Of a stretch of DNA of 64,000 bases, positions 2,760 through 20,792 are shown piece after piece. The notes under the pieces are model-generated. The model saw nothing but the letters and a program-made list of their open reading frames with translations, searched no databases and had not been told where the DNA came from. Numbering within the stretch: position 1 is the stretch's first letter; the number at the start of each line of letters is the position of its first letter. The position numbers and the translations under genes were made by a program. The stretch is from a virus (Duplodnaviria > Caudoviricetes). The DNA lies in IMG/VR virus record IMGVR_UViG_3300029288_000080, positions 113,604 to 177,603 of that record. One strand, written 5' to 3'.

Positions 2760-3211
2760 AAATCTGGCGGCGGGTTTGTGGGCGATTGAGGTTGTCACCG
2801 CTCAACCCTGAGGCGCAGCAGCTGTACCACAACCACACGGCCTTGATGTGGTGTGATCACCAGATGGCCCAGGACCAGAGCGACGAATTTGACCGGCTCG
2901 GTACCTTGTTGGGGACCCGGTGGACCAAAGACCAGGTCGCCACGATGTTCCAAAAGGGCAAGGGGAAAGCCACGCCCGACACCGTCATGATCCCCCTGGC
3001 CTTCATCGTGCAGCCGGAATTCCAGGAGGCCCTGAAGTCTATCTGGGGCACCTCGCTGCACAAACCCCGGTGGGTCGGGGACACCTCCGAGGTTGTGGAA
3101 GCCTCAACCTTGCCGAAGGAACAGTTCCTGGCCATGACGGCCGCGTCGAGCATCGCGGCCAAGGTCCAGCAGCTCAGGATGCAGCGTAACAACACCCCTG
3201 GCTCAAAATAA
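2711..3211 (+). CDS. gpT-like extension of the tail chaperone (-1 frame; ORF track 2786..3211)
   Basis: The ORF has only a weak TTG start with no RBS; reachable by a -1 shift at CCCTTTT. Confidence 0.65.
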   Translation, partial: PFSQTVEAAERLDPHLKIWRRVCGRLRLSPLNPEAQQLYHNHTALMWCDHQMAQDQSDEFDRLGTLLGTRWTKDQVATMFQKGKGKATPDTVMIPLAFIVQPEFQEALKSIWGTSLHKPRWVGDTSEVVEASTLPKEQFLAMTAASSIAAKVQQLRMQRNNTPGSK

Positions 3212-3223
3212 AGGGTAGACATT

Positions 3224-6025
3224 ATGGCGAACAATCTTCCGGGCGGACCTCCTGTAAGTCCTGGTGGACCTGCTGCCGCGGTTCCAGCGAACCCCCTGGT
3301 CCAGACGCCCACGACCACCGTTCCGGTCAACACCGCAGCAATCAACACCAACACGGCCGCGATCCAACAGAACACCGGGGCGATCAACGAGAACGCCGAT
3401 GCCACGGGCCGCTGGACACGACTCCAGGAGGACCAACGCAAGACGTTCCGTGATTTCCTGAAAGAGGAAGTCGAAGGGATGCGCCAGGCTGCCGCGGCAG
3501 CCGGGGATTATCGACGGTACATCTCGGAAGTCACGGGGGCATTTAGCGGGATGGCGGCCAAGATGAAGGAGCAGACCTCCCTCTCGACCATCTACAACAA
3601 TGCCCTGGGTCAACTATCCGAGGGAACCAAGTCCTATACAGCATCCCTCCAAGCCAACACCGGGGCCATCGGGGACGCTACCCAGCAGTCAACGGCGTTT
3701 GTCACGGGGCTCCAGGCCGCCCAGGCGCAGTCACACGAGTTGGCCGCGCGCTACAACATGGACGCCGGGGCAATCGCGAAAGCCGGGGAGACCGCGACCC
3801 AGATGTTCGCGACTCAGTTGGGGGCCATCGGGGATGTATCGGGAGGGATCAAAAGTCTGCAAAAAGAGTCGGTCATCTTCTCGCGGTTTTTCGGCACCGA
3901 CATGACCGCCGTGATGCAGCACTGGCAGGAGCGCATGGAGCACTCCAACATGACCCTCACGGAGGCCAAGGACGAGACTGCCCTGCTGGCCAAGGTGGCG
4001 GACCAGTATGCAATTTCGCTGGGTAAACTGGGCGACAAAATGCTCCAGACGGCCCAACTGGGTAAAAAAGAATTCCTCGAGATGGCCAAGCAGATCAATC
4101 AGGAGTTTCGCCTGGGGGTCCCGAATGTCGTGGCCTACACGGCCGCGATGGCCAAGATGTCGTTGGAGGCAGCGAAAAAGGGTTCCACCAAGATCGAGCA
4201 GGCGACGACCAGCCAGGGTCTCTTGAAACTCATGAACGAGATGACGTCCACGGAAGGCCAGTGGGGCGTCATGGCGTTCAACGCGGCACAAAAATCCTGG
4301 CAGCAGTTCAACACGGCCCCCGAGACCATGTCGAAAGAGGCGCGGTCTCGCCTGGAAGGTCGCAGGGGCCAGATTGAGGCGGCGTCGGGTAGCACGGTCG
4401 TGCAGGCCGGGCTCATCACCGAGGCCATGAAGGGTACGTCTGACCTGGCCATCAGCGCTCTCAAGAGCATGAAGGAAAAGGCTGGCGGCGACCAGGTGGC
4501 CCTGACCGCGATGCTGCGGCCCATCGTCGGGTCCATGACGGCCGCTGCGGACATTGCCGAAGGGCTGAACACCGGGTCAATCGAAGAGGTATTTGAGAAA
4601 CACAAGGAAGCCCTGATGGGCGAGGCCGAAAAACAAAAGACCGCTACCGAAAAGCTCGTGACTGCTGGGGCCAAGACCAATTCCACGCTGCATTCCATGG
4701 CCAAGGACATCAACTCAATCTACCACTGGATGATCGGGATGGCGGTCGGAAGCCCAGTCATGACGGCGCTCAGCACTGTAATTGGGGGTGCGGTCATGAA
4801 TAAGGTATTGGGCAGCACCATTGCGGCGCTTGGGCCCAAAATCTTGGCCACAGCGGCACCGACCGCATTGTCTACCGTAGCCCCAGCGGCGTTGTCCACC
4901 GGGGTGTCAGCTGCTGGCGGTGCTGCGGCCATCAAGACCGCGTTGGCTGGCGGTGCCGCAGCCGCTAAAGCCACTGCGCTCGCAGTGGCGCCGGCAGTTT
5001 TGCCGACTCTCTTGGTAGCTGCGGCAGCCTACAGTGGATACAAATATCTTGGGGCCAAAGACGAAGCTAAAAAACTAAGTAAAGGTGGCCGGAAAGTCGA
5101 TACTTGGGACGTACTGGCCAACCAGATCAATAATGTTTTGGGTGGTGGTGGTGGGTGGCACGCCCGTGAATTCGTCTCGTCAATGACGTTCAAGGAACTG
5201 GCCGCCCAGAAAAAGAAAATAGCGCAGATGGAGAAGGAGATCAAAGATAAGGAAACCAACGGCAAAGCCCTGACCGAGGCAGAAAAACAGGAAATTATCC
5301 TTAAAAAGCGAAAGTTGGAAGCCGAGAAAGCCAAGATCGCCGCGATCGTGGCCGAGGAGAAAAAGATCAAACCCTTCACCGACAAGGAACTGGCCGAGCG
5401 CCAGCTCGCGGTCATTAAACACGTAGCCGGCCGGGTTGCCTCGGGGGCCAACGTTGGGGGCCGAGGGGCAATGGGCAGCGCGATGCTCGGGATGGCCGAA
5501 GACTCGGCCAGTATGGCCAAGGAGTTGGTCGGGAGTCTGGGCCTGGGGGTTGGCAGCATGGACGCGGGTGAAACCCTCGCGGGATTTTTGCACGGTGGCT
5601 CCCCCGAAGCCGCGGCCTTGATGAAAAAGTTGCAGGCCAAGAGGATTTCTCAGGAGTCATTTGAGTCCGAAGTTGACGATAAGTTGAAGCGGAAGCAACT
5701 GGAATACGCTGGGGTCGACACCACTGGAATGAACAGGATGAAAATGTACGAGGAGTGGGGTAAAAAGATCACCTATGGGACTTCGGTCACGGGCCTGACC
5801 CCTGAAATACGAGAAGCAATGTCTCGTGGGTCTGAGAAACGTTATGGGGGCACCGGGATCACCGGGGTGGACCCGTCCAGTGACCTCAGCGAGGTCAGGA
5901 AGAATCCCGACGGATCAGTTGATTTGGTTACGACCATGAAGGTAACGAGCAAACTTTCAGCAGCTGGTGCTGGAATCATCAATGCGGTCGGCGCCTGGGC
6001 CAATAGTGGCGGCGTCGCTGGCTAA
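3224..6025 (+). CDS. putative tail tape measure protein
   Basis: 933 aa, helical and Ala/Gly/Met-rich, with a hydrophobic central stretch and a coiled coil; directly follows a G/GT-type frameshift pair. Confidence 0.7.
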   Translation: MANNLPGGPPVSPGGPAAAVPANPLVQTPTTTVPVNTAAINTNTAAIQQNTGAINENADATGRWTRLQEDQRKTFRDFLKEEVEGMRQAAAAAGDYRRYISEVTGAFSGMAAKMKEQTSLSTIYNNALGQLSEGTKSYTASLQANTGAIGDATQQSTAFVTGLQAAQAQSHELAARYNMDAGAIAKAGETATQMFATQLGAIGDVSGGIKSLQKESVIFSRFFGTDMTAVMQHWQERMEHSNMTLTEAKDETALLAKVADQYAISLGKLGDKMLQTAQLGKKEFLEMAKQINQEFRLGVPNVVAYTAAMAKMSLEAAKKGSTKIEQATTSQGLLKLMNEMTSTEGQWGVMAFNAAQKSWQQFNTAPETMSKEARSRLEGRRGQIEAASGSTVVQAGLITEAMKGTSDLAISALKSMKEKAGGDQVALTAMLRPIVGSMTAAADIAEGLNTGSIEEVFEKHKEALMGEAEKQKTATEKLVTAGAKTNSTLHSMAKDINSIYHWMIGMAVGSPVMTALSTVIGGAVMNKVLGSTIAALGPKILATAAPTALSTVAPAALSTGVSAAGGAAAIKTALAGGAAAAKATALAVAPAVLPTLLVAAAAYSGYKYLGAKDEAKKLSKGGRKVDTWDVLANQINNVLGGGGGWHAREFVSSMTFKELAAQKKKIAQMEKEIKDKETNGKALTEAEKQEIILKKRKLEAEKAKIAAIVAEEKKIKPFTDKELAERQLAVIKHVAGRVASGANVGGRGAMGSAMLGMAEDSASMAKELVGSLGLGVGSMDAGETLAGFLHGGSPEAAALMKKLQAKRISQESFESEVDDKLKRKQLEYAGVDTTGMNRMKMYEEWGKKITYGTSVTGLTPEIREAMSRGSEKRYGGTGITGVDPSSDLSEVRKNPDGSVDLVTTMKVTSKLSAAGAGIINAVGAWANSGGVAG

Positions 6026-8060: not shown

Positions 8061-9141
8061 CCGTGATCTTGGCAAGTTGACCGACCGCACCGCTGACCCC
8101 ACCGAGGCGGTCCAGCGGGTGCTCGCGTCATTCGCGGCCGACGCGATGGGCCGCAACCCAGACGTCGACGACGACGGCGAGACCGCAATGGATTTTGTCA
8201 GTTTCATGATGGTGTTGCTTCAGAGCGACGCCGTCATCAATCTCCCGACGTACCGGCGCCGGCGGGTCGCGACCGTCAATCCCGACGAGATCGTGGTGTC
8301 GGCGGCCAACCGGCACGGCCGCGTCCTGGGGCTTACGTCAAACCAGCACGTCTGGTCCATGGGGGTCAACATCAACGACGCCAACGTCATGACCGCCACG
8401 ACCGTTGGGGCATCCAGGACTTTCCTGTTCCAGGACATCACGGGTGAGTGGTACGACGAGTGGAGCGGAATCGACTTCCGGACCGACAACTTCCCCGAGA
8501 AGCTCCGGACCGCGTTCGCGGCCAGTGAGATCAAGTTCACCGAGATGGTGTCGAGAAACCGCGGGGCTGGTGTCTACGGGCGCCGTTTCATCCTGGCCAA
8601 GGCGGCGATCACCCGGCTGGCTGACCGCGACAAATTCCTCAAGGCCGAGGCCAAGCGGTTGGCTCCCCCGGTGGATCCTGCAGCCCCCAAGGCCCCGTGG
8701 TCTGGGCCCAGGAAGGTCGGGACTGGCGAGAAGGTCAAGGTCTGGGCGTTCAACTGCTTCGTGGATACCTCGCTGACCGGCGACTACACCCCGATGGGGT
8801 CGCTCGAGGAGGTCCAGCGGGAACGCCACCGACTCCGCCAGAACATCCAGACCCTCCGGTTTTGCACCAGGGCCACGGAGTTCGGGTTCTGGAAGGACCA
8901 CATCGGTACCACCATCGGGCACGAGGACGCTGATCTGCTCGGTTGGCTCAAGGGCGGCGACCCCACTGCCCTGAAGGTACCGGCTTGGTGTCCGGGCGAG
9001 TGGACCACGGGGGTCAAGGCCCCTGGGGCCAAAACATTCTTCGCAGCTCTGCGGCGTCCCGATGCCCCCACGGTTCGGTGGCGGGCTTGGCGCCAGACCG
9101 AGGAAGTCGCAGCCCCCATGGACGACAGCACCGGCGAGTAA
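8041..9141 (+). CDS. hypothetical protein
   Basis: AGGAG RBS, 366 aa, GC3-biased codons. Confidence 0.8.
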   Translation: MNLQDFNRDLGKLTDRTADPTEAVQRVLASFAADAMGRNPDVDDDGETAMDFVSFMMVLLQSDAVINLPTYRRRRVATVNPDEIVVSAANRHGRVLGLTSNQHVWSMGVNINDANVMTATTVGASRTFLFQDITGEWYDEWSGIDFRTDNFPEKLRTAFAASEIKFTEMVSRNRGAGVYGRRFILAKAAITRLADRDKFLKAEAKRLAPPVDPAAPKAPWSGPRKVGTGEKVKVWAFNCFVDTSLTGDYTPMGSLEEVQRERHRLRQNIQTLRFCTRATEFGFWKDHIGTTIGHEDADLLGWLKGGDPTALKVPAWCPGEWTTGVKAPGAKTFFAALRRPDAPTVRWRAWRQTEEVAAPMDDSTGE

Positions 9142-9178
9142 CTCCTAAACCAACACGCAGTCCAGTGAAAGGAAAATC

Positions 9179-10096
9179 ATGACGACCAAGTACCCCACCA
9201 AGCACGATGTCCGCGAGCACCATGGCAATCTTTACCGTGCGGCCAAGCAATGGCTGGAGCAGCCCGACAGCTGGTCCCCCGACTGGACCGACGACTGGGT
9301 CGCGGCTGCTGCTTTCCTGAACCAGCAGCCCGACGGCCGGATGTTCCATGAGACCCCCTGGACCCCCAAGGGGGTCATGGGGTTGTTCTCCCAATACCGG
9401 TTTGACGACCATGGTAATGTGGTCCCGACCCCCAGGGCTCCGCGACAGTCCCGCAAGCCCCTGGGGTTCCGGCGGACTGCCACGGGTTACCGTCGGTACC
9501 TGAAGCCCGGGACCAGTCAGTACCGCAAGGTCATGGCTTCGGTGGTCCAGGCATTCCAGTGCGGTGGCACCGCTGCCGAAGCAGCCAAGATTCTGGAGAC
9601 CAGTGACGCCAACCACCTCAAGAACTACCGGCAGGGCCGCCCCTGGACTGCCCCGGTGGTCACGAGCCTGATGTACCGACTGCGTCATGGCAATCCCGGT
9701 CTGCATGATCGCCTGGTCACCGAGATCCCGACCAATGTGGTACATAGGGATCCCAAGACCAAGAAGGAGCAGGTGGTCAACACGACCAAGCTGTTCGACA
9801 CCCTGGCCAAGGAGTTTGCGCCGCCTGATGCACCTGTGATCGACGCGTTCACGACGCCCAAGCAGGAGTTTGCCTTCTACGCACCGTCACCGACGGCCAA
9901 GCAGGAGCCCAGCAAGCCCAAGGGCCGCGTCATGAAAATCCAGATCCGCGAGGCCGGTGACCTTCTCCAAGTGTTCCGGACCCATAGTGGTACCTTGGTC
10001 CTGACGGTCAAGTCCACCGACCAGCCAGGTGCCCTGATGTCCGCGGTCGACCAGTTCTGCCAGGGCCTCGGCGTCACGATCCCTAAGGTGCTGTAG
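9179..10096 (+). CDS. hypothetical protein (possible HTH DNA-binding)
   Basis: AAGGA RBS; TAAEAAKIL helix-turn-helix-like segment. Confidence 0.75.
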   Translation: MTTKYPTKHDVREHHGNLYRAAKQWLEQPDSWSPDWTDDWVAAAAFLNQQPDGRMFHETPWTPKGVMGLFSQYRFDDHGNVVPTPRAPRQSRKPLGFRRTATGYRRYLKPGTSQYRKVMASVVQAFQCGGTAAEAAKILETSDANHLKNYRQGRPWTAPVVTSLMYRLRHGNPGLHDRLVTEIPTNVVHRDPKTKKEQVVNTTKLFDTLAKEFAPPDAPVIDAFTTPKQEFAFYAPSPTAKQEPSKPKGRVMKIQIREAGDLLQVFRTHSGTLVLTVKSTDQPGALMSAVDQFCQGLGVTIPKVL

Positions 10097-10212
10097 TGAA
10101 ATCTCCTTGGCCCACTTGGCTGTCCAGGACTTCCCAGCGCCTGATCTACGTGCTCTGGGTCATCGTGGTGATCGCTGGAATCGTGATCCTTGTTCTTCGC
10201 GGCACCTGGTAG
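10096..10212 (+). CDS. small membrane protein (38 aa)
   Basis: GTG overlapping the previous stop; LIYVLWVIVVIAGIVILVL transmembrane segment. Confidence 0.5.
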   Translation: MKSPWPTWLSRTSQRLIYVLWVIVVIAGIVILVLRGTW

Positions 10213-10344
10213 CGCTTGCTCACTCCCCAAGACATTGCCCAGCGGATTCAGCAGCATGACCTGAACAGAGCCCGCCGCAAGTCGCGGGGCTTCAGCCCCG
10301 GCGAATAGGCGCGGCTTTTCTTCGGCTTCAGCCAGAAATAGGTC

Positions 10345-10373
10345 TTGACAGCACTGTCTACAGGCACTATAGT
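10345..10373 (+). promoter_or_regulatory. sigma70-like promoter for the passenger genes, overlapping TGTCTAC/GTAGACA boxes
   Basis: TTGACA-N17-TATAGT. Confidence 0.75.
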
Positions 10374-10418
10374 GTAGACAGGACGGTAGACACAAAGGAG
10401 AAATAAATGAGAACTTTA
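10374..10418 (+). repeat. 45-bp leader direct repeat, copy 1
   Basis: GTAGACAGGACGGTAGACACAAAGGAGAAATAAATGAGAACTTTA; 4 mismatches to copy 2. Confidence 0.9.
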
Positions 10419-10787
10419 TACGTCGTGCTTGGTTTTGCTGCGCTAACGTTTGTGGGTTGTGGTAAGAGTCCTGAGGCGAGAAGGGAAGAGCTGATTAGTC
10501 TAGTAGAACGTAAGGTCCAGCATGACCTGCCCTATGAAGACCACAGCACCAGAATTGTTCATGCAAAAATTAGCGATCCTTACCTATGTGTCTATGTAAA
10601 TGCAGCAGGAGATCCGCTAGCCAGATACGCAAGCAGCTTTGCTCAAGAACAGGACGTATTGGGCGCGGCAAAGCAAGTTGGCCTTACTACGATCGTGATC
10701 CACAACGGTCTTAGATCTAATGAAATCGACACGGTAACCGGAACGTCTCAGATGCGTACTGATGCTCTACCCAGCGGATGCAAGTAG
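10407..10787 (+). CDS. predicted lipoprotein (IS passenger)
   Basis: Signal peptide with lipobox FVGC; strong RBS. Confidence 0.8.
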   Translation: MRTLYVVLGFAALTFVGCGKSPEARREELISLVERKVQHDLPYEDHSTRIVHAKISDPYLCVYVNAAGDPLARYASSFAQEQDVLGAAKQVGLTTIVIHNGLRSNEIDTVTGTSQMRTDALPSGCK

Positions 10788-10828
10788 ACAGGACAGTAGA
10801 CATAAAGGAGGAATAAATGAGAACATTA
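10784..10828 (+). repeat. 45-bp leader direct repeat, copy 2
   Basis: GTAGACAGGACAGTAGACATAAAGGAGGAATAAATGAGAACATTA. Confidence 0.9.
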
Positions 10829-11413
10829 GGTTTTACCTTGTTTTGTCTGTGCTGCCTATCTTGTAAACAGGAGAGTCAATCTGCCGAGAAAGCGGAAACT
10901 GCTGATGCTGTTGCTCCGACGTGGCAGGAACAAGAAGCACAACGGGATCAGCAAAATCCGCTTGCTTCCGCGGCCTCGATCTACCGTGAGCTAGTTGACG
11001 CCTACGCGGTGTTGTCTGGCAAGGAAGAGTGCGTGCCCTGCACGCAACTGGTGCAACAGGAGCGTCGTGCTCAGCAAGTTCAACGCGGCGGCACTGACGA
11101 GCACCGACGCACAGCTTACAGCATCAAGAGTGCGGCCATCAAAGAATGTTGGGGGCATTTTGACGGTTATGAAACCACACGGTTCGATCGCTACCACGAG
11201 CGCGTAGGGCGTTTTTCACCAGGTCAACACCAGGTTCTTTATCGACTCTTACAGAAGGGTTTGGTGCTATTACGGCCATGTCGAGCTAAATTATGCCATT
11301 TGGCCAAAGACAATATTAGGCGCGAGGCTGAAGGTAAATGTAATGCACTGGGCGTAGTGCTGCTCGCCGTAGAAAAGGCGCTCAAGCAAGCCGGTGCATT
11401 CAAAGAGGAATAG
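10817..11413 (+). CDS. predicted lipoprotein (IS passenger)
   Basis: Signal peptide with lipobox CLSC; strong RBS. Confidence 0.75.
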   Translation: MRTLGFTLFCLCCLSCKQESQSAEKAETADAVAPTWQEQEAQRDQQNPLASAASIYRELVDAYAVLSGKEECVPCTQLVQQERRAQQVQRGGTDEHRRTAYSIKSAAIKECWGHFDGYETTRFDRYHERVGRFSPGQHQVLYRLLQKGLVLLRPCRAKLCHLAKDNIRREAEGKCNALGVVLLAVEKALKQAGAFKEE

Positions 11414-11427
11414 GGCCGGTACTCGCC

Positions 11428-11829
11428 ATGGCTAACGCGATGGAATACCAGCGAGACGAGCACCGGGTCCACTTGATCGTGTACCACTTGATCTGGGTGC
11501 CCCGACGCCGTAAAGCCGTGTTGATCGGTGCCGTCGCCCAGGACTGCAAGGCACTGATCGAGCGTAAGTGCGCGGAGCAGGGCTGGACCATCCTGGAGTT
11601 GGCCATTGACCCCGACCACATTCACCTTTTCGTGCGGGCCTGGCCTACCGTGTCGGCCGCCGAGATTATACAGAAGTGCAAGGGGTTGACTAGCCACGAG
11701 CTTAGAAAGCGACATCCCCAGCTCTTGAAACTGCCGTCACTGTGGACCAGGTCCTACTTTGCCTCCACGGCCGGTAATGTGTCGAGCGAAACCATCCAAC
11801 GGTATATCGCGGCTCAGCGTAAATTCTGA
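11428..11829 (+). CDS. tnpA: IS200/IS605 Y1 (HUH) transposase
   Basis: YHLIWVPRRRK, DHIHLFV (HUH), LWTRSYF, YIAAQ catalytic Tyr. Confidence 0.95.
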   Translation: MANAMEYQRDEHRVHLIVYHLIWVPRRRKAVLIGAVAQDCKALIERKCAEQGWTILELAIDPDHIHLFVRAWPTVSAAEIIQKCKGLTSHELRKRHPQLLKLPSLWTRSYFASTAGNVSSETIQRYIAAQRKF

Positions 11830-12977
11830 TGTTAAAGACCTTCCGCTACCGTCTCTACCCCAGCAAGGCCCAGGCCAAACGCCTGGCCTCGACGCTGGAG
11901 ACGTGCCGCCGGGTCTACAACGACTGCTTGGCCGAGCGGAAAGTGGCCTACGAGACCGAAGGCAAGACCATCGGGAAGTTCGAGCAGCTCCGTCACGTCA
12001 AGGAGATCAAAGCGACCAACCCCTATGCCAAAGGAGTCCACAGCCACGTCCTCCAGGTCACGATCTCGGACCTGGATAAAGCGTTCCAAGCATTTTTCCG
12101 TAGGGTCAAGCAGGGCGAAAAGCCCGGCTACCCTAGGTTCAAGGGGCGGGATCGTTTTGACTCGTTCGGGCTGAAAGAACTGGGCAACGGATTTAAGGTG
12201 GACGGCCGACGGCTGAAGATCTCTGGTGTCGGAAGGATCGCGGTCAGGTGGCACCGGGAACTGGAAGGCAAGGTCAAGACTATCCGGTTGGTCCGGGCCG
12301 CGGGCCATTGGTTTGCATGTTTCTCCTGTGAGGTTGCTGTGCAGCCACCGCTGCCCGCGACGGGCAAGAGCGTTGGGCTTGACGTTGGTATCGAGAGCAT
12401 CTTGACCACCAGCGATGGCGACAAGGTAGAGAACCCTAGGTGGTACCGTGGCGACCAAGCCAAGCTCAGGGTGGTGCAACGTAGGGTGTCCAGACGAAAG
12501 AAAGGGAGCAGGCGTCGGCGTAAAGCCATCAAGATGCTCCAACGGCACCACGAAAGAACCAAAAATCGGCGAAAGGATTTTTTGGACAAGTTGGCTTGCA
12601 CGTTGATCACAACTAACGACGTCATCGCGATCGAAGACTTGCAGGTCACCAATATGGTCAGGAACCACCACCTGGCCAAGAGCATCATGGACGCATCCTG
12701 GGGCTATCTGCGGCAACGACTTGAAGCCAAAGCGGCAGAAGCTGGACGGCAAGTCATCGCGGTACCCCCGGCCTACACGTCCAAATCTTGCTCGGGTTGT
12801 GGCGCTATTTTTGAGGATCTGAAATTAAGCACCAGATGGGTCAAGTGCTGCTGTGGTTTGTCTCTGGACCGCGACCACAACGCTGCCGTCAACATTCTTA
12901 GGAGGGGACACCTCCTTCGGGAGTCAACGTGGGCCGCTCAAGAGCCGTGCGTATCCCGAGAAGCCGCTGGGCTTTAG
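11829..12977 (+). CDS. tnpB: RNA-guided endonuclease TnpB
   Basis: RuvC D-E-D intact (GLDVG, IEDL, DRDHNAA); zinc finger CSGC...CCCG. Confidence 0.95.
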   Translation: MLKTFRYRLYPSKAQAKRLASTLETCRRVYNDCLAERKVAYETEGKTIGKFEQLRHVKEIKATNPYAKGVHSHVLQVTISDLDKAFQAFFRRVKQGEKPGYPRFKGRDRFDSFGLKELGNGFKVDGRRLKISGVGRIAVRWHRELEGKVKTIRLVRAAGHWFACFSCEVAVQPPLPATGKSVGLDVGIESILTTSDGDKVENPRWYRGDQAKLRVVQRRVSRRKKGSRRRRKAIKMLQRHHERTKNRRKDFLDKLACTLITTNDVIAIEDLQVTNMVRNHHLAKSIMDASWGYLRQRLEAKAAEAGRQVIAVPPAYTSKSCSGCGAIFEDLKLSTRWVKCCCGLSLDRDHNAAVNILRRGHLLRESTWAAQEPCVSREAAGL

Positions 12978-12994
12978 CCCATGCGGAGTGTCAC
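12860..12994 (+). ncRNA. predicted TnpB omegaRNA/reRNA scaffold (5' boundary approximate); guide begins at 12995
   Basis: Overlaps the tnpB 3' end and right-end hairpin, as established for IS200/IS605. Confidence 0.55.
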
Positions 12995-13400
12995 CGAGAG
13001 TACCAAACCACTATCATGTGGGCGTTGCTTGACGCGGTCGCGGACGCACATCAGTATGCCGATGTCCAGTTGGTCGAGACCCCCTGGACCCTCGTGGCCG
13101 ACGTCGTGGCCTACGGAGTTCAAGGTAAATCCCCTGCCCTGACGACAGCGGCAATTCAATGTCTGGAGCAGGGATTCGCCGCCGTGGGCACCAAGGCCAG
13201 TATTTTATACGACTTGGCTGGTGACGGCAGCACCTGTTGTGTCGTGGATCCAGAAGTTCATGACCCCGAAAAGGTCGTGGCCAGGATGAAAGCCCCGGTG
13301 GTCAGGTATCAAGGCCGGATTTTTATTCGCCGTTAGTCCACGAAACTAAAACAGAATCCTGGGGCACGGCAAAATAAATCCATTTTTCTGTAAAAAAGAG

Positions 13401-13429
13401 TTGACGTTGTCAATCAAATGACCTATATA
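13401..13429 (+). promoter_or_regulatory. sigma70-like promoter with palindromic -35 (TTGACGTTGTCAA)
   Basis: TTGACG-N17-TATATA with an AT-rich UP region. Confidence 0.7.
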
Positions 13430-13486
13430 TTGCTTGTAGGCAGCGACAACCAACGGCCCCAAGGGGCCTGAACCAGGAGAACGAAA

Positions 13487-14299
13487 ATGCCCAGCAAGAA
13501 GATCGATGGTATCACCCGCAACGATTTCTTCTACGTGGAGACCAAGTTCGTCCGGGTGGAGCCCGGGTTCAACGGAAGGATCACCACGACCGACAACGGA
13601 GTCGCCCCCGACGACGACCTCGCCGACCTGGAGTCGATCCGGGAGCACGGGGTCCTGGTGCCGCTCATGGTGCGGCCCGACCCCGAGGGGATCACCAAGT
13701 ACGTGGTGATCGAGGGGCACCGGCGGCTCGCCAAGGTGCTGCTGCTGAACGCGAACGGCTGCGACATCCGGGTGCCCGTCATCGTCGAGCACGTCAACGA
13801 GCAGGACGCCGCCGCCATGATGGCGATGGCGGGGCTCCAGCGCAAGAACTTCTCGTTCGCCGAGGAGGTCAACATCGTCCGGAAGTTCGCCCGGTGGGGC
13901 CTGTCCCCGGCCGAGACGGCCAAGAAGATCGGGATGCCGGTGGAGTGGGTGCGGCAGCACCTCGCGGTTTCCGCCGCCCCCGAGTCCGTCCTGGCGGCCG
14001 TGGCCTCCGGGGCCATGCCGGCCGACGTGGCGGTCAAGATCGCGAACCTCTCGGCCCGGGATGTCAAGAAGGTCGTGGACGCGGCCCAGAAGGGCCGGGG
14101 CTGCGCCCGCAAGGCCTCAGAGAAGGTGACCGGCAAGGCCGCGCGGCCCGGCAAGAAGGTGGTGGTGTCCATGAAGACCCTGCTGGCCGAGACCAAGCGG
14201 AACCGGAGCCCCCGGGTGAACCGCTGGATCGAGACCTGCCTGGACTTCGCGGCCGGGATGGTCCCGGCCGACGACCTGGCCGACATGCTCCGTCGCTAG
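13487..14299 (+). CDS. ParB/Srx-like protein with HTH
   Basis: SIREHGVLVPLMV...VIEGHRRL box, QRKNFSFAEE, SPAETAKKIG HTH. Confidence 0.85.
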   Translation: MPSKKIDGITRNDFFYVETKFVRVEPGFNGRITTTDNGVAPDDDLADLESIREHGVLVPLMVRPDPEGITKYVVIEGHRRLAKVLLLNANGCDIRVPVIVEHVNEQDAAAMMAMAGLQRKNFSFAEEVNIVRKFARWGLSPAETAKKIGMPVEWVRQHLAVSAAPESVLAAVASGAMPADVAVKIANLSARDVKKVVDAAQKGRGCARKASEKVTGKAARPGKKVVVSMKTLLAETKRNRSPRVNRWIETCLDFAAGMVPADDLADMLRR

Positions 14300-14349
14300 T
14301 CCTTCCTTTCCGCTGCTTCCCCTTTCGCCTTTTTCTTTCCAAAGACCTC

Positions 14350-14378
14350 TTGACAAGTATTGCACTGCGCGGTACACA
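14350..14378 (+). promoter_or_regulatory. sigma70-like promoter (leaderless geometry)
   Basis: TTGACA-N17-TACACA, ATG 6 nt downstream. Confidence 0.6.
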
Positions 14379-14384
14379 ATAGGT

Positions 14385-14528
14385 ATGAAGACTGCTACCA
14401 GCTTCCGCCTGTCCAAGCGGGCCCATGAAATCTTGGCCATCCTGGCTGAACAGAAGGGCGTCAGCAGGACCGCCATCATAGAGATCGCGTTGCGTGAATT
14501 GATCACACGGGAAAAGTCCAGTGGGTAG
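14385..14528 (+). CDS. CopG-like ribbon-helix-helix protein (47 aa)
   Basis: MKTATSFRLSKRAHEILAILAEQKGVSRTAIIEIALRELITREKSSG (manual translation). Confidence 0.8.
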   Translation: MKTATSFRLSKRAHEILAILAEQKGVSRTAIIEIALRELITREKSSG

Positions 14529-16041
14529 AGCCACAACCCCCACGTTCATCGCGGAGTTTCCCTTGGTCACGACTCCTGATCAGGAGCGTGAACTTGCCAT
14601 CAGGATGGAGATGGCCCGGCAGATCTACAACGCTGCCTTGGAAGAATCCCTCAGGATCCTGGATCTCATGCGGGAGTCTCGGGCGTGGAAGCAGGCACGG
14701 AAGTTGAAGGGGAAAGATAGGACCGCGGCGTTCAAAGCAGCGGTTCAATCTTTTGGGTTCAACATCGGCACAATCTATTTGTTTACGAAAACCTGCCGTA
14801 AGTCTTGCTGTATTCAAGACCATGTGGGAGCGGTGGAGGCACAAACCCTGAGTGACCGAGCGTTCAGCGCAGTTCAGCGCTATGGTTTCGGGAAGCAGGG
14901 TAGACCACGGTTCAAGGGTTACGGTAGACTTCATAGTGTTGAGGGAAAGAGCAACAAATGTGCCATTATGTTGCGGGGCAACCAAATCCTGTGGATAGGG
15001 TTGACCCTGTCCTTAATGCTGGACCCCAAGTCAAACGAATGGCAAACCCAGGCGCTGGCCTGCAGGACCAAGTATTGCCGCATTGTTCGTCGGCGCATCA
15101 AAGGTCAGGATCGTTGGTTCTGCCAGTTGGTACAAGAAGGGCGTCCTCCCCAGGTTCATCAGGTAGGTGAAGGTTCCGTGGGGCTGGACATCGGGCCCAG
15201 CACGATCGCTGTTGTCAGCGACTCCGCCGCTAAAGTCCAGCAGTTTTGCCCGACGGTTCAAGAACCTTGGGCCGAGACCAGGGTGATCCAGCGGGCTCTG
15301 CGTAGAAGCAGAAAGGCTACAAATCCTAATCGGTACAACTCAGACGGCACGTATCAACGAGGACGCGGCCACTGGACCAAATCCACGCGGTATCGGAAAT
15401 TACAGGTCAGATTGGTAGAACAGCAGCGAAAACTCTCTGCAGAGCGGCGTAGGGCACACGGCCAACTCTGCAACGAGATCTTGGCCCAAGGAAAGGAACT
15501 CAAAACCGAAAACATAAGCTATTTGGCTTTTCAAAAGAATTTTGGCCGAAGCATGAAAGTCCGGGCTCCTGGGATGTTCATGGCGCTGCTGACCCGCAAA
15601 GCCGAAAATGCTGGCGGGTCCATCACGTTGATCACGCCCAGGACCACAAAGTTGTCCCAGTACGACCACACTGTGGATCGGTACATCAAGAAACCATTGT
15701 CCCAAAGGATCCATTGCTTTGGCGACGGTGTTACTAAACCGGTTCAACGTGATCTTTACAGTGCTTTTCTGGCCAAACATTGTTCCAAGGATAACTTGGA
15801 TGTCCGTCAGGTCCAACTGGCCTGGCCGGCTGCGAAACCGCTGCTGCGACGGGCGACATCCAAGTGGAAAGAATCTGCGAGCAGGAAGGCTTCGGCCATT
15901 CCTCACGATCATGATCGTCAGAGCGGATCGTCCGTCAAAGCCGACCCAGACCACGACGAGGCCCGGGATGTTGTAGTGAGGACACCAGACTCACGAGAGC
16001 CCGGGAGAGCTGCGGTTAGGAAAGCAGAATCTCATGTTTAG
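14521..16041 (+). CDS. tnpB: large TnpB-family RNA-guided nuclease (506 aa), zinc-finger cysteines largely lost
   Basis: GLDIGPS, KTENISY and QRDLYSA RuvC motifs; KLSQYDH...KKPLSQRIH. Confidence 0.85.
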   Translation: MGRATTPTFIAEFPLVTTPDQERELAIRMEMARQIYNAALEESLRILDLMRESRAWKQARKLKGKDRTAAFKAAVQSFGFNIGTIYLFTKTCRKSCCIQDHVGAVEAQTLSDRAFSAVQRYGFGKQGRPRFKGYGRLHSVEGKSNKCAIMLRGNQILWIGLTLSLMLDPKSNEWQTQALACRTKYCRIVRRRIKGQDRWFCQLVQEGRPPQVHQVGEGSVGLDIGPSTIAVVSDSAAKVQQFCPTVQEPWAETRVIQRALRRSRKATNPNRYNSDGTYQRGRGHWTKSTRYRKLQVRLVEQQRKLSAERRRAHGQLCNEILAQGKELKTENISYLAFQKNFGRSMKVRAPGMFMALLTRKAENAGGSITLITPRTTKLSQYDHTVDRYIKKPLSQRIHCFGDGVTKPVQRDLYSAFLAKHCSKDNLDVRQVQLAWPAAKPLLRRATSKWKESASRKASAIPHDHDRQSGSSVKADPDHDEARDVVVRTPDSREPGRAAVRKAESHV

Positions 16042-16205
16042 GCATGGGAAGGTCTGGCTAAAGGAAGTCGAGCGTCATCTTTTCAGAAGCCAAAAAGGCC
16101 AAGGCCGACGCGACCGTCCTGGCTAACCTAGCCCTGGTGCTCGCGGAAGCCGAACAGCACTTGGCCGACGCTTCCGTGATGGAGCCGGCCGAGTAAAATA
16201 AAGTA

Positions 16206-16234
16206 TTGACAAGGTCAATACCCTGTACTATAAA
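16206..16234 (+). promoter_or_regulatory. sigma70-like promoter with palindromic -35 (TTGACAAGGTCAA)
   Basis: TTGACA-N17-TATAAA. Confidence 0.8.
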
Positions 16235-16255
16235 GACTGTAGAGGAGACAGCGTC

Positions 16256-16870
16256 ATGACCACGAAAATCAAGACCACCAGGCACCCTGACGGATTCACC
16301 GCCTACGAGATCGCTGGCCTGATGGAGATGGCCCAGCGGTACCTGTACCTCCGGGAAAACCTGAGCCGTACCCACGACATGATGGTCTCGGCCGACAGCA
16401 TGGTGGCCAAGGGCCTGGACCTCCCCGAAGCCCTGAAGCCCGAGCGACTGCTCAAGGGCATCGCATACTACATCAGCACGGCGTTCAACCCGGATCGCTG
16501 TCTGTGCAGTTGCAAGGGTATGTACTTCTGCGACCTGTCTGCTGGCCACCCTGGTCCCCACAAGGATGATACCTTCCAGTGGGACCACGATTATGATGCA
16601 GGCGTCGCCGGCGAGATCAAGGAGTTGGAGGTCCTGGACCACGACGAAATCCAGCGGGAAATCGGCATCAGGGTCATCTACGACTCGGTGGACCACCACC
16701 ACGAAGCCCGTCGGTTCAAGACCATGAAGGCGGCCCAGCGGTTTGCCCACCGGTGGGTCGGGACCACGCCGGAAATCGGCACTGATTATGCTGTGAGCCC
16801 CGACGGTATCGGGCGCATCACCTGCGAGGGATGCGACGTCTACACGTTGTTTCCCGACGTGGCGAGGTAG
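16256..16870 (+). CDS. hypothetical protein
   Basis: GAGGAG RBS, 204 aa. Confidence 0.75.
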   Translation: MTTKIKTTRHPDGFTAYEIAGLMEMAQRYLYLRENLSRTHDMMVSADSMVAKGLDLPEALKPERLLKGIAYYISTAFNPDRCLCSCKGMYFCDLSAGHPGPHKDDTFQWDHDYDAGVAGEIKELEVLDHDEIQREIGIRVIYDSVDHHHEARRFKTMKAAQRFAHRWVGTTPEIGTDYAVSPDGIGRITCEGCDVYTLFPDVAR

Positions 16871-16874
16871 TGTC

Positions 16875-17129
16875 ATGAACAAGACCAAGGTCAAGATCGA
16901 GAAGGCCCTGGTGGACGCAAAATTCATCAAGGTGGAGCCGGACTTCTGGGCGCTGTTCCCTTACGGGCCGGACACCCGACCGTGGACCCGCCGAGACGTC
17001 AGGGAGTCCAGCGCCATCGCGGCCGAGTACCACGCGGGCGAATGGAAGGTCATCCGGGGGCTCCAGAGCGTCGCGATCAACAAACCACAAGATGTCCAGG
17101 TAGCCGTGGACCTTCTGTGCGGAAAGTAG
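16875..17129 (+). CDS. hypothetical protein
   Basis: GAGG RBS, operon packing. Confidence 0.65.
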   Translation: MNKTKVKIEKALVDAKFIKVEPDFWALFPYGPDTRPWTRRDVRESSAIAAEYHAGEWKVIRGLQSVAINKPQDVQVAVDLLCGK

Positions 17130-17137
17130 GAAGTGCC

Positions 17138-17365
17138 GTGAGCAAACCCACACGACATTACCATCGGATTTTCAAGGAAGCGGAAGTCACGGCCTACTAC
17201 GTGCCCCCGCCCTTGGAAGCACACTGTTATGTTCAAATTTGCAGATGCGGGGCATGGCGTTGCCGCTGGCAGCCCGCCTTAAAGGATGATGGTCGGGTAT
17301 GGGTTTCAAAGGACGAGCAGGACCCGTTTGTTCAGACCGCCATCAATAGTCTTCTAGGAAAGTGA
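17138..17365 (+). CDS. hypothetical protein
   Basis: GTG start after AGGA; 3' part of ORF 16982..17365. Confidence 0.55.
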   Translation: MSKPTRHYHRIFKEAEVTAYYVPPPLEAHCYVQICRCGAWRCRWQPALKDDGRVWVSKDEQDPFVQTAINSLLGK

Positions 17366-17372
17366 GGACGCT

Positions 17373-18053
17373 ATGTACGAGTGGCAATACTGCGCCGTCG
17401 ACACCAACGCCCAGAAGTATTTCCCGTGGACCAGCCAGCGCCGCCAGGCCATCCGGGACTTGCTGGACTGGGTCTGGGACCAGCCCAATCGCGTCCGTGG
17501 CGAGCGCGTCGCCCACATCGCCGTGAAGGACTGCTACGTGGAACGTCGCTGGACCGACCAGGGCGACCCCGAGGGAGATCCGGAGGGTAGCGTCGGAGAA
17601 GCCATGTGGTACGCCCAGTACCACGGGTGGGTGGACCGACAGGGTCGTTGGGTGGACCCTCAGGACCCTCCTGGCCACAAGGACTCGCTCTGGCTGGACG
17701 ACGGTAGAGCCCCGAGCGAGTGGGAGCGTGGGCTTTCGTGTAGCCAGGAAGACCGTGACGCCAGCGAGTGGGTCTGGGTCATGACCATCGACGAGGCCAA
17801 GACAGCTTTGCAGTCCGGCCGCTACCGTTACGTGTCCTTGGACTGGTCGCTGGAGTCCACGGATCCTGACCACACCGGTACCGACCTGGCCAAGTGGATC
17901 CTCCAGGAAGCGGAGGCTGGGCGACTACCACGTCTCAAGTGGTACGTGCATTCGGGTCTCTCGTCTGGTCGGGCAGAAATGCGCCCGTACCTGAAGGCCG
18001 CGGACCAGAGTTGGGCGGCCCGAGAAAAGGTGCAAAATCATGACGCCAAGTGA
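17373..18053 (+). CDS. protein with a C-terminal cyclic-phosphate-processing receiver (cREC)-like domain
   Basis: LWLDDGRAP...WVWVMTIDEA...VSLDWSL...TGTDLAKWI...VHS...GRAEM pattern. Confidence 0.7.
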   Translation: MYEWQYCAVDTNAQKYFPWTSQRRQAIRDLLDWVWDQPNRVRGERVAHIAVKDCYVERRWTDQGDPEGDPEGSVGEAMWYAQYHGWVDRQGRWVDPQDPPGHKDSLWLDDGRAPSEWERGLSCSQEDRDASEWVWVMTIDEAKTALQSGRYRYVSLDWSLESTDPDHTGTDLAKWILQEAEAGRLPRLKWYVHSGLSSGRAEMRPYLKAADQSWAAREKVQNHDAK

Positions 18054-18315
18054 AGCCATTGCCAAGATGTTCCAGATCCACATGAAGGCCGAGGATGACC
18101 TCCGGGCTGTCCTGGACCAGTACAACGCCGAGCACAGAACCATCATTCCGGTGGAACGGCTCTGCTACGACGCCATGGTGGAGAACCAGCTGGGTCATAC
18201 CACCGACATCATTCCCAGGAGTGTGTTCTGCCATTACTACTCGGCGGTCGAGTGGGCGGCCAACTGTCACTATTACCGGGCCAAGGACCTTGAAGCCCAG
18301 GGTAAGGGGAAGTAG
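18040..18315 (+). CDS. hypothetical protein
   Basis: Overlapping start, 91 aa. Confidence 0.6.
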   Translation: MTPSEAIAKMFQIHMKAEDDLRAVLDQYNAEHRTIIPVERLCYDAMVENQLGHTTDIIPRSVFCHYYSAVEWAANCHYYRAKDLEAQGKGK

Positions 18316-18316
18316 T

Positions 18317-18715
18317 ATGACCGCCATCAGGACCAGGACCATGAGAAAGCGCTGTATGCTGTGCACAGCCCAACACGAGGGCGAGATCGGGGATCCTTAC
18401 TGCCCCGAGTGCGGGCTGCTGTGTCGTGGTTTCGAGGCCCTGGCCCACCAGGACCCTGGGGCTGCACTGGACTGGCTCGCCACCATGGAACACTGTTACG
18501 GGCTGGCCCAGCAGTGCAGGGAACTCCCGCCTTGCCAGCCAGAACTCACGGCGCTGTTTGACGGACTGCTCCATCGTGGTCTGGCCAGCACGGGCCCCAT
18601 GAAGGACTTCATCGAGGCGTACTGCCAGTACCTTCAGGACGGCGAACACCTGCTGTCCGAGGAACAGAAGCAGGACCGTGCCCATGACAGGGTCGTGGCC
18701 CTGTTCGGGGGCTGA
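18317..18715 (+). CDS. zinc-ribbon hypothetical protein
   Basis: CMLC...CPEC. Confidence 0.6.
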   Translation: MTAIRTRTMRKRCMLCTAQHEGEIGDPYCPECGLLCRGFEALAHQDPGAALDWLATMEHCYGLAQQCRELPPCQPELTALFDGLLHRGLASTGPMKDFIEAYCQYLQDGEHLLSEEQKQDRAHDRVVALFGG

Positions 18716-18717
18716 TC

Positions 18718-19164
18718 GTGGTGACGATCCGGCATTATCAGGACCACTGGGCCCTGCAGGGGCGAGAGAATACCCGCAATCTATGGGACGGGGACGTTGC
18801 CCCGGACCCGCGGCTTCCCAGGGCGGCCCAGCGTTTCTGGCGCCAGGTGCATTTTCCACCGCGGTGTAACGGTGGTGTCGTGGCTCGTGACCATAGTGAA
18901 ATCATAGGGATTTGCCGGTACGAAATCGTCAGTGACGCCCCCCGTTGTCGTGGCCAGGTGATCTTAGAGATGGCGGGCACCTGGATAGCTCGCCAATATC
19001 GTCGAGATGGTCTCGCCACCCGAATGTGGCGCTTGATTTTTCGGAAACTTCCGAAAGACACCAAAGTGCACTGCGTGGTTGCCACGTGGAGCGGCGCCCG
19101 CTTCGTGACCCGTTTAGCCCAGCAGTACCCCCATCTGCATTTTCAGGTTTCTCACGGTTATTGA
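18718..19164 (+). CDS. GNAT-family acetyltransferase
   Basis: TWIARQYRRDGLATRM acetyl-CoA-binding motif A. Confidence 0.7.
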   Translation: MVTIRHYQDHWALQGRENTRNLWDGDVAPDPRLPRAAQRFWRQVHFPPRCNGGVVARDHSEIIGICRYEIVSDAPRCRGQVILEMAGTWIARQYRRDGLATRMWRLIFRKLPKDTKVHCVVATWSGARFVTRLAQQYPHLHFQVSHGY

Positions 19165-19247
19165 CCCCTCCGCCCATTTCTCCCCACGTTAATCTTTAGT
19201 GGAATCCTAGTCCAGCCGGATCAACGGCGTGGGAAATGGTGTAGCCT

Positions 19248-20792
19248 ATGTCTATTGCGCAGTTTTCGCAATTTCGCGATTTTCTCGCGTTGGTCGTCCA
19301 GGACACTGATGTCGTGCGGAAAAATCAGGTCCTCCAGGACTCCACCTACATGGAGACCTTGCTGGCCCGGATCGAGGCCCTGACCCCCGACATTACCCTG
19401 AAGTCCACGTACGCCGACGCGATTTCTCAAATGGGCGTCGTGAAGGTTGACGATTCAGCCCGAACGATCAATTTCGTGCCCCTGGGGTTCGAGACCAAAC
19501 TGTCTCGCTACCGCGAGGGCGTCGCCACGGCCCCGAATTACCTGTGGGCCAGGACCACGACTTCTGCTGATCGGGTCCGCTACCTCTTGGCCGACTGGTC
19601 CGACACGGTCACGGGTAATGGGGTCCTGCTGCTCAACGAGCAGTTGGAAGTGTTGCGCCGATTCCCGCATTTTGGCTCCTTGCCCGCGACCCCTGATTTC
19701 CAATACGAAGAAGCTTCTTGCGCCATCACCTTTACGGTCGGGGACGCTGAATATATCGCGATTGCGTGCAACAGCCACCACATCGTCCAGATTTACGCCT
19801 GGGCGGCCCCGTACGGCCATGTCGCGACCATCGGGACCATCGACACCCCTGGGGCCAACGCCACGACCCTGACGAGTCCCACTAGCTTGGCGTTCAACTC
19901 CGCGACCTCCATGCTGTACATCGGGTGCCCCACGGGCCAGCCGGCCGGCGCAACCGCAGCCAACGGATTTGTGGCCGCGTGGGACCTGACTATTCCTGGT
20001 ACCCCGGTGTTTTCCGCGATCCCCTGGTTCTACAGCGGCACCGGTTCCCTGCTGGACTCCCAGGTCCACACGCCTACAAGTCTGTACCACGACGGTACCT
20101 ACTTGTGGATCGTCAATGGTAATGATTCGACCGTCGGGGCATTTTCCACCACGGGAAATCTCCCGCCTTGCCAACGGTTCCTTGAAGCCCAGGGACCAGG
20201 ATACCAACTGCGGTCGCCCCGACAAGTCTGGGTCCAGGCAATTTCTGGTGGCTACGGTCGCGTCTACGTGGCCAACTCGGCCACCGGGGTCATCGACGAG
20301 TTCGACGGCGTAACTTTCGAGCACCTCCACAGCTACGGGATCCGGGCCAGTGAAGATGGGCTCAATGCCTACACGCGACTGTCCCCCTATACCTATGGTG
20401 CCCTGGGGCAACCCGTGGGGGTTGCTTGGGACCAAGTGGTGATTGGCGACCAGACCACCAATGTCCTGGTCGTGGCCGATGCGGCCAACGGACGGCTTCA
20501 CCGATTTAACCTCGACGCCTACCAAACCGACAATTTCGTGAATTTCGCAGAAGTGGAGTTTGGGGTTCCTGTGGAGTTGACCGGTTGGAGTTTGGACGGA
20601 ACCGTCCCGATCAATCTCGTGAAAGTATACTACAGGACCGCCGCCACCCAACAGTTTCGTGAGTTGTCCCAGGATGCCACGACCCCAGCGGCCAAGACAT
20701 TCCAGTTCCGGGTTCAGTTCCACCTGGACACCGAACAGTTCGTCGCGGCCTGGTGGTTCAAAAATCTCACGATTTCTGGGAAACAGGTTTAA
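19248..20792 (+). CDS. virion structural protein with NHL/beta-propeller repeats
   Basis: Repeated P.SLA/P.GVA...LYVA/VVADAANGRL units; first gene of the structural block. Confidence 0.65.
   Translation: MSIAQFSQFRDFLALVVQDTDVVRKNQVLQDSTYMETLLARIEALTPDITLKSTYADAISQMGVVKVDDSARTINFVPLGFETKLSRYREGVATAPNYLWARTTTSADRVRYLLADWSDTVTGNGVLLLNEQLEVLRRFPHFGSLPATPDFQYEEASCAITFTVGDAEYIAIACNSHHIVQIYAWAAPYGHVATIGTIDTPGANATTLTSPTSLAFNSATSMLYIGCPTGQPAGATAANGFVAAWDLTIPGTPVFSAIPWFYSGTGSLLDSQVHTPTSLYHDGTYLWIVNGNDSTVGAFSTTGNLPPCQRFLEAQGPGYQLRSPRQVWVQAISGGYGRVYVANSATGVIDEFDGVTFEHLHSYGIRASEDGLNAYTRLSPYTYGALGQPVGVAWDQVVIGDQTTNVLVVADAANGRLHRFNLDAYQTDNFVNFAEVEFGVPVELTGWSLDGTVPINLVKVYYRTAATQQFRELSQDATTPAAKTFQFRVQFHLDTEQFVAAWWFKNLTISGKQV

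Follow-up and report, generated by a model that had tools for sequence, protein, structure and literature searches.

A stretch of phage DNA of 64,000 nucleotides (hereafter the window: positions 113,604 to 177,603 of the IMG/VR virus record IMGVR_UViG_3300029288_000080; Duplodnaviria, Caudoviricetes) contains, at 10261-12994 on the plus strand, an insertion sequence in which two small genes stand between the left-end hairpin and the transposase gene tnpA. IS200/IS605 elements are viewed as minimal cargo-free insertion sequences, and the question raised by this locus is whether the two genes are passengers that belong to the transposable unit or original genes of the phage. The record is linear, 177.6 kb long and of an estimated completeness of about 70%. 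The results described below make it likely that 10261-12994 is an intact-looking, cargo-bearing element of the IS605 type, which is the best explanation overall.

The element is a complete member of the IS200/IS605 family and of the IS605 type, tnpA being followed by tnpB and the hairpins being sub-terminal. Read 5' to 3', with a slash for the cleavage point, it consists of TGAC/, the left end (LE), a promoter, two passenger genes, tnpA, tnpB and a right end (RE) that finishes with TCAC/ (Table 1). The insertion follows a TGAC and splits a small phage gene adjoining parB within its 5' portion; target duplication is absent from the flanks of the element.

Both transposon proteins were assigned. 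TnpA scored 133.9 bits with NF033573 (cut-off 55) and matched the TnpA structures of IS608 (2a6m/2vhg) and ISDra2 (2xm3) in the PDB; alignment to 2ec2 showed the HIH motif and the Tyr of RYI to be present. The start codon of the tnpA family corresponds to ATG 11440, and the cargo-bearing subclade is extended N-terminally by four codons. TnpB scored 324 bits with NF040570 and matched ISDra2 TnpB (8bf8/8h1j) over residues 3-360 with an E value of 2.4e-63. In the alignment to 9yyg, a close homologue of ISDra2 TnpB, the GLDVG, AIEDL and DRDHNAA segments line up, and all the RuvC D/E/D positions are present, together with the Zn-ribbon expected of a TnpB. Compared with a sister element found on three other contigs (L112-114, see below), the ratio of nonsynonymous to synonymous substitution rates (dN/dS) was 0.03 for tnpA and 0.09 for tnpB; both genes are intact, and relative to L112 they have evolved under strong purifying selection.

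Table 1. Coordinates of the element, its passengers and its flanks, in window positions.
Feature	Position	Strand	Remarks
Interrupted phage gene, N-terminal 15 codons (TTG start)	10216-10260	+	restored frame; first 25 nt identical in L197
TGAC target tetranucleotide	10257-10260	+	flanks LE; predicted left cleavage site and predicted target-adjacent motif (TAM) of TnpB
Left end (LE)	10261-10335	+	outer stem, guide CAAG, bulged TnpA hairpin, T-rich tail (folding; homology to cargo-free LEs)
Sigma-70-type promoter, TTGACA-17-TATAGT	10345-10373	+	11 of 12 consensus positions
Leader copy 1	10374-10418	+	two GTAGACA iterons, Shine-Dalgarno AGGAG, first codons MRTL
Passenger gene 1	10407-10787	+	126 aa, predicted lipoprotein, lipobox TFVGC, Cys18
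Leader copy 2	10784-10828	+	precedes passenger gene 2; overlaps stop codon of gene 1
Passenger gene 2	10817-11413	+	198 aa, N-terminal signal or anchor, predicted helical bundle
tnpA, Y1 (HUH) transposase	11428-11829	+	PF01797, E 1.7e-34; NF033573
tnpB, RNA-guided nuclease of ISDra2 type	11829-12977	+	PF01385, PF07282, PF12323
Guide-RNA (omega/re-RNA) scaffold helices and right end (RE)	12850-12994	+	guide GAAG, TnpA hairpin, AGTG TCAC/
Predicted guide-matching target of TnpB	12995-13014	+	right flank; adjoins TGAC after excision (by analogy with IS605 TnpB biology)
Interrupted phage gene, C-terminal 113 codons	12995-13336	+	adjoins parB; P0006, 89% identical, uninterrupted in L197

The ends were delimited by comparison with relatives of TnpB collected on contigs from genomes, viruses and metagenomes. 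An LE consensus common to about 30 distinct relatives consists of TGAC, a spacer of roughly 10-12 nt, CCGCCG, CAAG, a bulged hairpin and then TAGGCGGG; the distance between TGAC and the left-end motif is constant in most of them. In the window CAAG occupies 10278-10281 and the hairpin, TCGC-GGGGC-TTCA-GCCCC-G-GCGA, 10282-10304. The RE carries GAAG, the hairpin CCGC-T-GGGC-TTTA-GCCC-AT-GCGG and AGTG TCAC, with 12994 as its last position. In an alignment of 17 relatives AGAAG and AGTGTCAC were invariant. The imperfect sub-terminal hairpins, which take the place of terminal inverted repeats, co-vary at both ends, over the approximately 30 LEs and the 17 REs respectively. RNAalifold, run on the 17 right ends, predicted 25 pairs, with compensatory changes in 20 of them, and the helices upstream of the RE hairpin fit the guide-RNA scaffold expected of a TnpB. 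An Rfam scan of 10000-13300 gave no family match.

Structures of IS608 have established a rule by which target positions 2, 1 and 4 map to guide positions 1, 2 and 4. From this rule the sequence-only reading of the window had predicted cleavage at TGAC from CAAG and at TCAC from GAAG. Both tetramers are at the predicted positions, and the pairs CAAG-TGAC and GAAG-TCAC hold in the window, in L085, L086 and L112 and across the family. TGAC likewise flanks the elements of these three contigs. The nearest cargo-free relatives, all on viral contigs, are L084 and L085 (TnpB identity 80%) and L086 (76%). They have a homologous LE, flanked by TGAC/, about 100-120 nt upstream of tnpA, and their RE ends with TCAC/.

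The same boundaries were found in metagenomic contigs. In Logan contigs of the landfill runs X4 and X6 foreign flanks begin exactly after 12994, and one foreign flank reads ...GAATGAC immediately before a related LE. In these habitats closely related ends also occupy other sites. One contig of run X4 joins 10311 to 12957, covering 10269-10311 and 12957-12994, with foreign flanks left and right; this mini-derivative of a near-identical element from the same habitat is composed of LE and RE only and is similar to the palindrome-associated transposable elements (PATEs). The window element has every defining feature of the IS200/IS605 family that can be examined in sequence, and cargo in the leader slot is its departure from the family.

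That the cargo lies inside the unit is indicated, first, by the region upstream of gene 1. An inverted repeat, TGTCTAC/GTAGACA, flanks both sides of the -10 box of the promoter, and the two leader copies form a 45-nt direct repeat with 91% identity. GTAGACA occurs at 18 sites in the 177-kb genome, five of which are clustered within the element. Ahead of tnpA the cargo-free relatives show the same arrangement of promoter and iterons, and the promoter at 10345-10373 and the leader that follows it are the native tnpA promoter and leader of the family. In several relatives (L013, L128, L147, L051, L159 and others) the tnpA promoter combines the inverted repeat at the -10 box with a direct repeat that follows after about 5 nt. 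The sequence of the repeat co-varies from one element to the next, being TGTTGAT/ATCAACA in many relatives and TGTCTAC/GTAGACA in the window, at 10354-10402 and 10784-10802. This arrangement suggests an operator or a DNA hairpin.

The distance from the LE motif to the start of tnpA is 84-152 nt in the cargo-free relatives that have tnpA, 769 nt in L112 and 1169 nt in the window, in agreement with the proposal that the LE hairpin lies some 1.1 kb upstream of tnpA with a promoter and two genes in the interval. A module of 1.07 kb, containing two genes for putative secreted proteins, is placed between the element's own tnpA promoter and leader and tnpA itself, which puts the cargo within the left and right ends. 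It could be argued that the passengers are original phage genes, that the true LE lies beside tnpA and that the 10282-10304 hairpin represents a solo LE-like sequence or an unrelated one. The gap between gene 2 and tnpA is only 14-26 nt, contains neither hairpin nor guide and leaves no space for a second LE, and the leader ahead of gene 1 is, as described above, that of the tnpA family.

A second line of evidence was provided by an empty site. In silico removal of 10261-12994 restores a continuous open reading frame (ORF) starting LTPQDIAQRIQQHD/REYQTTIMW, as had been predicted. When protein clusters were searched with the product of the interrupted gene, P0006 was identified, a protein of 123 aa encoded on contig L197, which is syntenic with window positions 8971-19548 at 75-90% nucleotide identity. 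The whole of 10261-12994, including both passengers, is absent from L197. The frame that opens at TTG 10216 is also open in L197, which supports the view that the insertion interrupts a small gene within its 5' portion. The sequence-only reading had named retention of the lipoprotein genes in an empty-site genome as a finding that would refute it; this relative has neither passengers nor tnpA nor tnpB, and the reading withstands the check. An exact-pattern search and a protein search with the interrupted gene found no empty site in IMG/VR.

The third line of evidence is the sister element. On L112-114 it has the layout TGAC/LE-promoter-leader-(P0002, a homologue of passenger 2)-tnpA-tnpB-RE TCAC/, and with 91.5% identity in TnpA, 87.7% in TnpB and 81% at the nucleotide level it is closer to the window element than any cargo-free relative. 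The L112 contig has only two distant genes in common with the phage studied here (tblastx), and the element is inserted directly after a PF08924 glycoside-hydrolase-like gene, near a PG_binding_1 gene. The presence of the sister at a different locus of a distantly related phage-like contig indicates that the cargo-bearing form has inserted at least twice, and the repetition of the same architecture there is again at odds with passengers that were merely resident beside a transposon.

Contig L115 carries P0004, a homologue of passenger 1 (61% identity), followed at 1005-1041 by a 37-nt remnant of the 5' end of tnpA that includes the spacer of the cargo subclade. The arrangement suggests delivery of a passenger and later deletion of the transposase genes. 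At L115:1-2000 a tRNA-Thr gene is followed by a row of four or more small lipoprotein genes whose products start with MKTF...GC; P0004 is one of them. When the leaders of L198 (a contig with a further passenger homologue, see below) and L115 were compared with the leader of the element, homology was not clear. The neighbouring genes of L112 and L115 had no match in PHROGs.

The view that the passengers are original phage genes can draw on these homologues outside any insertion sequence (P0007 in L198 and the array of L115) and on the G+C content of the passenger region, which at 45-52% is below that of tnpA and tnpB. Set against the gap, the leader, the empty site and the sister element, it is extremely unlikely. 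LE distances, native leader, empty site, sister element and scar all bear out the claim that the cargo is inside the transposable unit.

As to what the passengers are, an envelope location of their products is well supported by sequence features: gene 1 follows the lipobox rule, and gene 2 encodes a signal sequence, in a hydrophobic Cys-rich N-terminus, ahead of a mature part with six conserved Cys. Passenger 1 and P0004 both conform to a PROSITE PS51257-like lipobox rule at Cys18. The structural model of passenger 1 is a small alpha/beta domain and that of passenger 2 a six-helix bundle (mean predicted local distance difference test, pLDDT, 79 and 77). Passenger 1 has only two homologues, a 99% identical copy from the same phage (L116) and P0004. 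Those of passenger 2 are P0002, 49% identical at the amino acid level, which occupies the corresponding slot in the L112 element, and P0007, 36% identical, outside any insertion sequence and located on phage-like contigs (L198) with DnaB and HNH genes. Each passenger represents an orphan family.

Between the window and L112 passenger 2 showed a dN of 0.46 with saturated dS. Seen beside the dN/dS values of tnpA and tnpB, this suggests either that passenger 2 diverged far faster than the neighbouring genes or that it was swapped for a distant homologue.

A lipoprotein together with a helical protein that contains Cys and is secreted or anchored could also form a spanin-like pair of lysis proteins acting at the envelope, and the position of the L112 element behind the glycoside-hydrolase-like gene and close to PG_binding_1 would suit such a role. 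Yet the compact bundle modelled for gene 2 has no long coiled coil, gene 1 is large, not rich in proline and without a C-terminal membrane segment, and L112 holds a homologue of gene 2 only. Lysis cargo on a rare mobile insertion would moreover duplicate a function for which the phage has genes of its own. We consider a spanin function improbable. Small envelope proteins that benefit the phage, by exclusion of competitors or masking of receptors as a leading guess, are a tentative proposal about the passengers, by analogy with lipoprotein morons of phages.

If the element behaves as its relatives do, the following course may be envisaged. The cargo and tnpA-tnpB would be co-transcribed from the left-end promoter. 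TnpA would bind both hairpins on single-stranded DNA, as in IS608 and ISDra2, and CAAG and GAAG would position cleavage at TGAC/ and TCAC/. Everything between the ends, cargo too, would be excised as a circle with the predicted junction ...GTGTCAC/CTGAACAGAG... (TCAC/CTGAAC), leaving the donor joint ...CAGCATGAC/CGAGAGTACC..., and would be reinserted 3' of another TGAC. TnpB, with a guide RNA derived from the right end, would cut emptied or naive sites that consist of TGAC plus CGAGAGTACC..., and recombination with an occupied copy would restore or spread the element. For TnpB the prediction is TGAC as TAM, CGAGAGTACCAAACC as target and TGAC+CGAGAGTACCAAACCACTAT as cleavage substrate. TnpB homing is proposed for this element from published work on the family.

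Excision and insertion are indicated indirectly, by the different insertion sites of related copies and by the empty-site relative. Several observations weigh against the interpretation of the locus as an active cargo-bearing transposon. The element is present in one copy in the 177.6-kb record. In Logan contigs of four further runs occupied junctions were present and no excision joint from 10260 to 12995 was found, although Logan contigs drop rare variants and the absence of the joint therefore says little. Immediately to the left of the junction L197 contains an additional 93 nt that keep the frame, and it has CGAC in place of TGAC, with four further mismatches to the predicted 20-nt target; owing to the indel and to CGAC it represents the empty site of a relative, not the exact pre-insertion sequence. 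The sister element lacks the 27-nt inner LE hairpin (L112:4046-4075) on three contigs from three samples, the outer stem and the T-run being kept, so that it is probably no longer excisable and immobilised; this loss suggests that cargo-bearing copies may tend toward fixation. A joint from 9867 to 11883 in run X3 has a side of only 21 nt and was disregarded.

Other points of the same kind concern the passengers. Passenger 2 of the window fails the lipobox rule, as does P0007, whereas the L112 orthologue P0002 follows it. Neither passenger has a match in Pfam, PHROGs, PADLOC or NCBIfam. Fold searches remained at background, with a best Z of 7.0 (a CamS lipoprotein domain) and Foldseek E values of at least 0.01. 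Foldseek against PDB and BFVD and a VIA wide search gave nothing over background for either passenger; in the ESM Atlas feature matches did not exceed 0.83, and a TM-score above 0.5 was reached by passenger 1 only (0.65), to unnamed clusters. The description of the passengers as two lipoprotein genes consequently stands for gene 1, for which the prediction is firm, and is uncertain for gene 2. The suggested role in superinfection exclusion or receptor masking found no support, the family and fold searches having matched nothing.

These observations leave room for a related explanation, in which the locus is a real cargo-bearing IS605 derivative that is now fixed and effectively immobile and its passengers are ordinary accessory genes (morons) of the phage. 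Besides the single genomic copy and the deleted hairpin of the sister, it would account for L115, where a passenger was kept and tnpA and tnpB were lost, and for six landfill and groundwater runs that show the occupied allele only, with no skip joint. It has more difficulty with the ends of the window element, which match the family consensus, bulged hairpins and guides included, with the intact and selectively constrained transposase genes, and with the occurrence of closely related ends elsewhere in these habitats. We regard a fixed insertion as possible, on balance doubtful.

A cargo-bearing IS605 element remains the interpretation that we favour for the locus, and a wider proposal can be formulated from it. 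A phage-restricted IS605 lineage might serve as a vehicle and, through TnpB homing, as a drive for fast-evolving envelope-protein cassettes that give a competitive edge, passengers being added, swapped or dropped at the repeated leader and the transposase being lost after delivery. The passenger would then stay behind among the phage's lipoprotein genes, as the scar of L115 suggests. This proposal is speculative and rather unlikely to be correct. Delivery of envelope proteins between phages, as the sequence-only reading had it, agrees with the passenger 2 homologue in the sister element and with the scar of L115; in that reading mobility at present and the function of the passengers are conjecture. 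Overall, the sequence statements of the reading were confirmed, with the reservations given for L197 and for the lipobox of gene 2, and its interpretation was supported in part.

Scans for further copies were made in several ways. When contigs of genomes, viruses and metagenomes were scanned for TnpB, cargo-free relatives only were returned apart from the window; patterns of the leader and of the junction between cargo and tnpA yielded no further copies; and profile scans of IMG/VR with both passengers found nothing. Long distances between LE and tnpA in L043, L074 and L094 were considered as cargo and rejected, since they reflect a longer spacer or chance motif matches. At L037:1630-5143, in a metagenome-assembled genome of Planctomycetaceae, related tnpA and tnpB genes are 2 kb apart with a 415-aa ORF on the opposite strand between them; this interruption is probably a nested insertion, not cargo.

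The surroundings of the element have features of their own. Directly upstream of the interrupted gene, at 10097-10212, an ORF of 38 codons encodes a single hydrophobic helix (LIYVLWVIVVIAGIVILVL) and is conserved in L197 (1065-1181). Downstream of parB, 14350-16077 contains a ribbon-helix-helix (RHH) gene and a gene for a 506-aa TnpB-like protein, and L197 has an unrelated 497-aa ORF at 2727-4220 instead. The two were compared as possible counterparts and are not homologous, and the region appears to be a second variable cassette near the insertion sequence. At least three more TnpB-like genes were noted in the record (at about 1-390 on the minus strand and 62858-63940 on the plus strand of the window, and at 65445-66230 of the genome), and by this measure the phage is unusually rich in TnpB elements. 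The remaining TnpB genes of the record have at most 45% protein identity to the TnpB of the element.

This case is a well-documented example of an IS605 element with a Y1 transposase that carries genes for envelope proteins and circulates on phage contigs. Its ends have been mapped, the empty site occurs in a relative, there are a sister insertion and a delivery scar, and the cargo is driven by the element's own promoter. IS605-type elements can, on this evidence, move accessory genes between phages, and if the proposal of a vehicle is true they are a route of accessory-gene exchange among phages. The passengers, one of which has diverged much faster than the adjoining transposase genes, are candidate factors in conflicts between phages or between phage and host. 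Cas12 descends from TnpB nucleases, which can drive elements into empty sites; the locus therefore offers a natural system for asking whether RNA-guided homing spreads linked cargo, as a gene drive with a payload.

Compared with IS608 of Helicobacter pylori and ISDra2 of Deinococcus radiodurans, the window element is alike in its Y1 HUH TnpA and in a TnpB close to that of ISDra2. It also shares the sub-terminal bulged hairpins, the 4-nt guide 5' of each, cleavage tetramers that obey the IS608 rule, insertion next to a fixed tetranucleotide, on its 3' side and without target duplication, and a guide-RNA scaffold that overlaps the 3' end of tnpB and the RE. It differs in its target, TGAC instead of TTAC or TTGAT, and in the 1.07 kb of passengers between the LE promoter and leader and tnpA. 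The closest members of its lineage (TnpB identity 76-88%) are all on viral or phage-like contigs.

Small lipoprotein genes carried by phages as morons are known to act in superinfection exclusion, as with Llp of T5, Cor of phi80 and N15 and Ltp of TP-J34. The passengers resemble them as small phage-borne lipoprotein genes with a strong promoter of their own, variable between relatives and fast-evolving. Unlike Llp, Cor and Ltp, to which they have no similarity in sequence or fold, they lie inside a transposon and not between phage genes.

Cargo in such elements is not without precedent. The absence of cargo from IS605 elements, assumed in the sequence-only reading, is correct as a rule, and rare cargo in IS200/IS605/IS607 elements, many of the cargo genes without recognisable domains, is already described in the survey of Altae-Tran et al. 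(2023; PMC10691335). The example given there is a branch of the IS607 type with a serine recombinase, Ser-3, whose cargo is of helix-turn-helix (HTH), helicase and WhiA-like genes. The elements of that survey and the present one alike bear TnpB and extra genes; here the transposase is of the Y1 type, the cargo is of secreted envelope proteins, and the ends, empty site, sister element and scar have all been mapped. Within the IS200/IS605 family itself the LE-RE contig of run X4 resembles PATEs, the hairpin-only miniatures, and the window element stands at the opposite extreme, of full length and with cargo.

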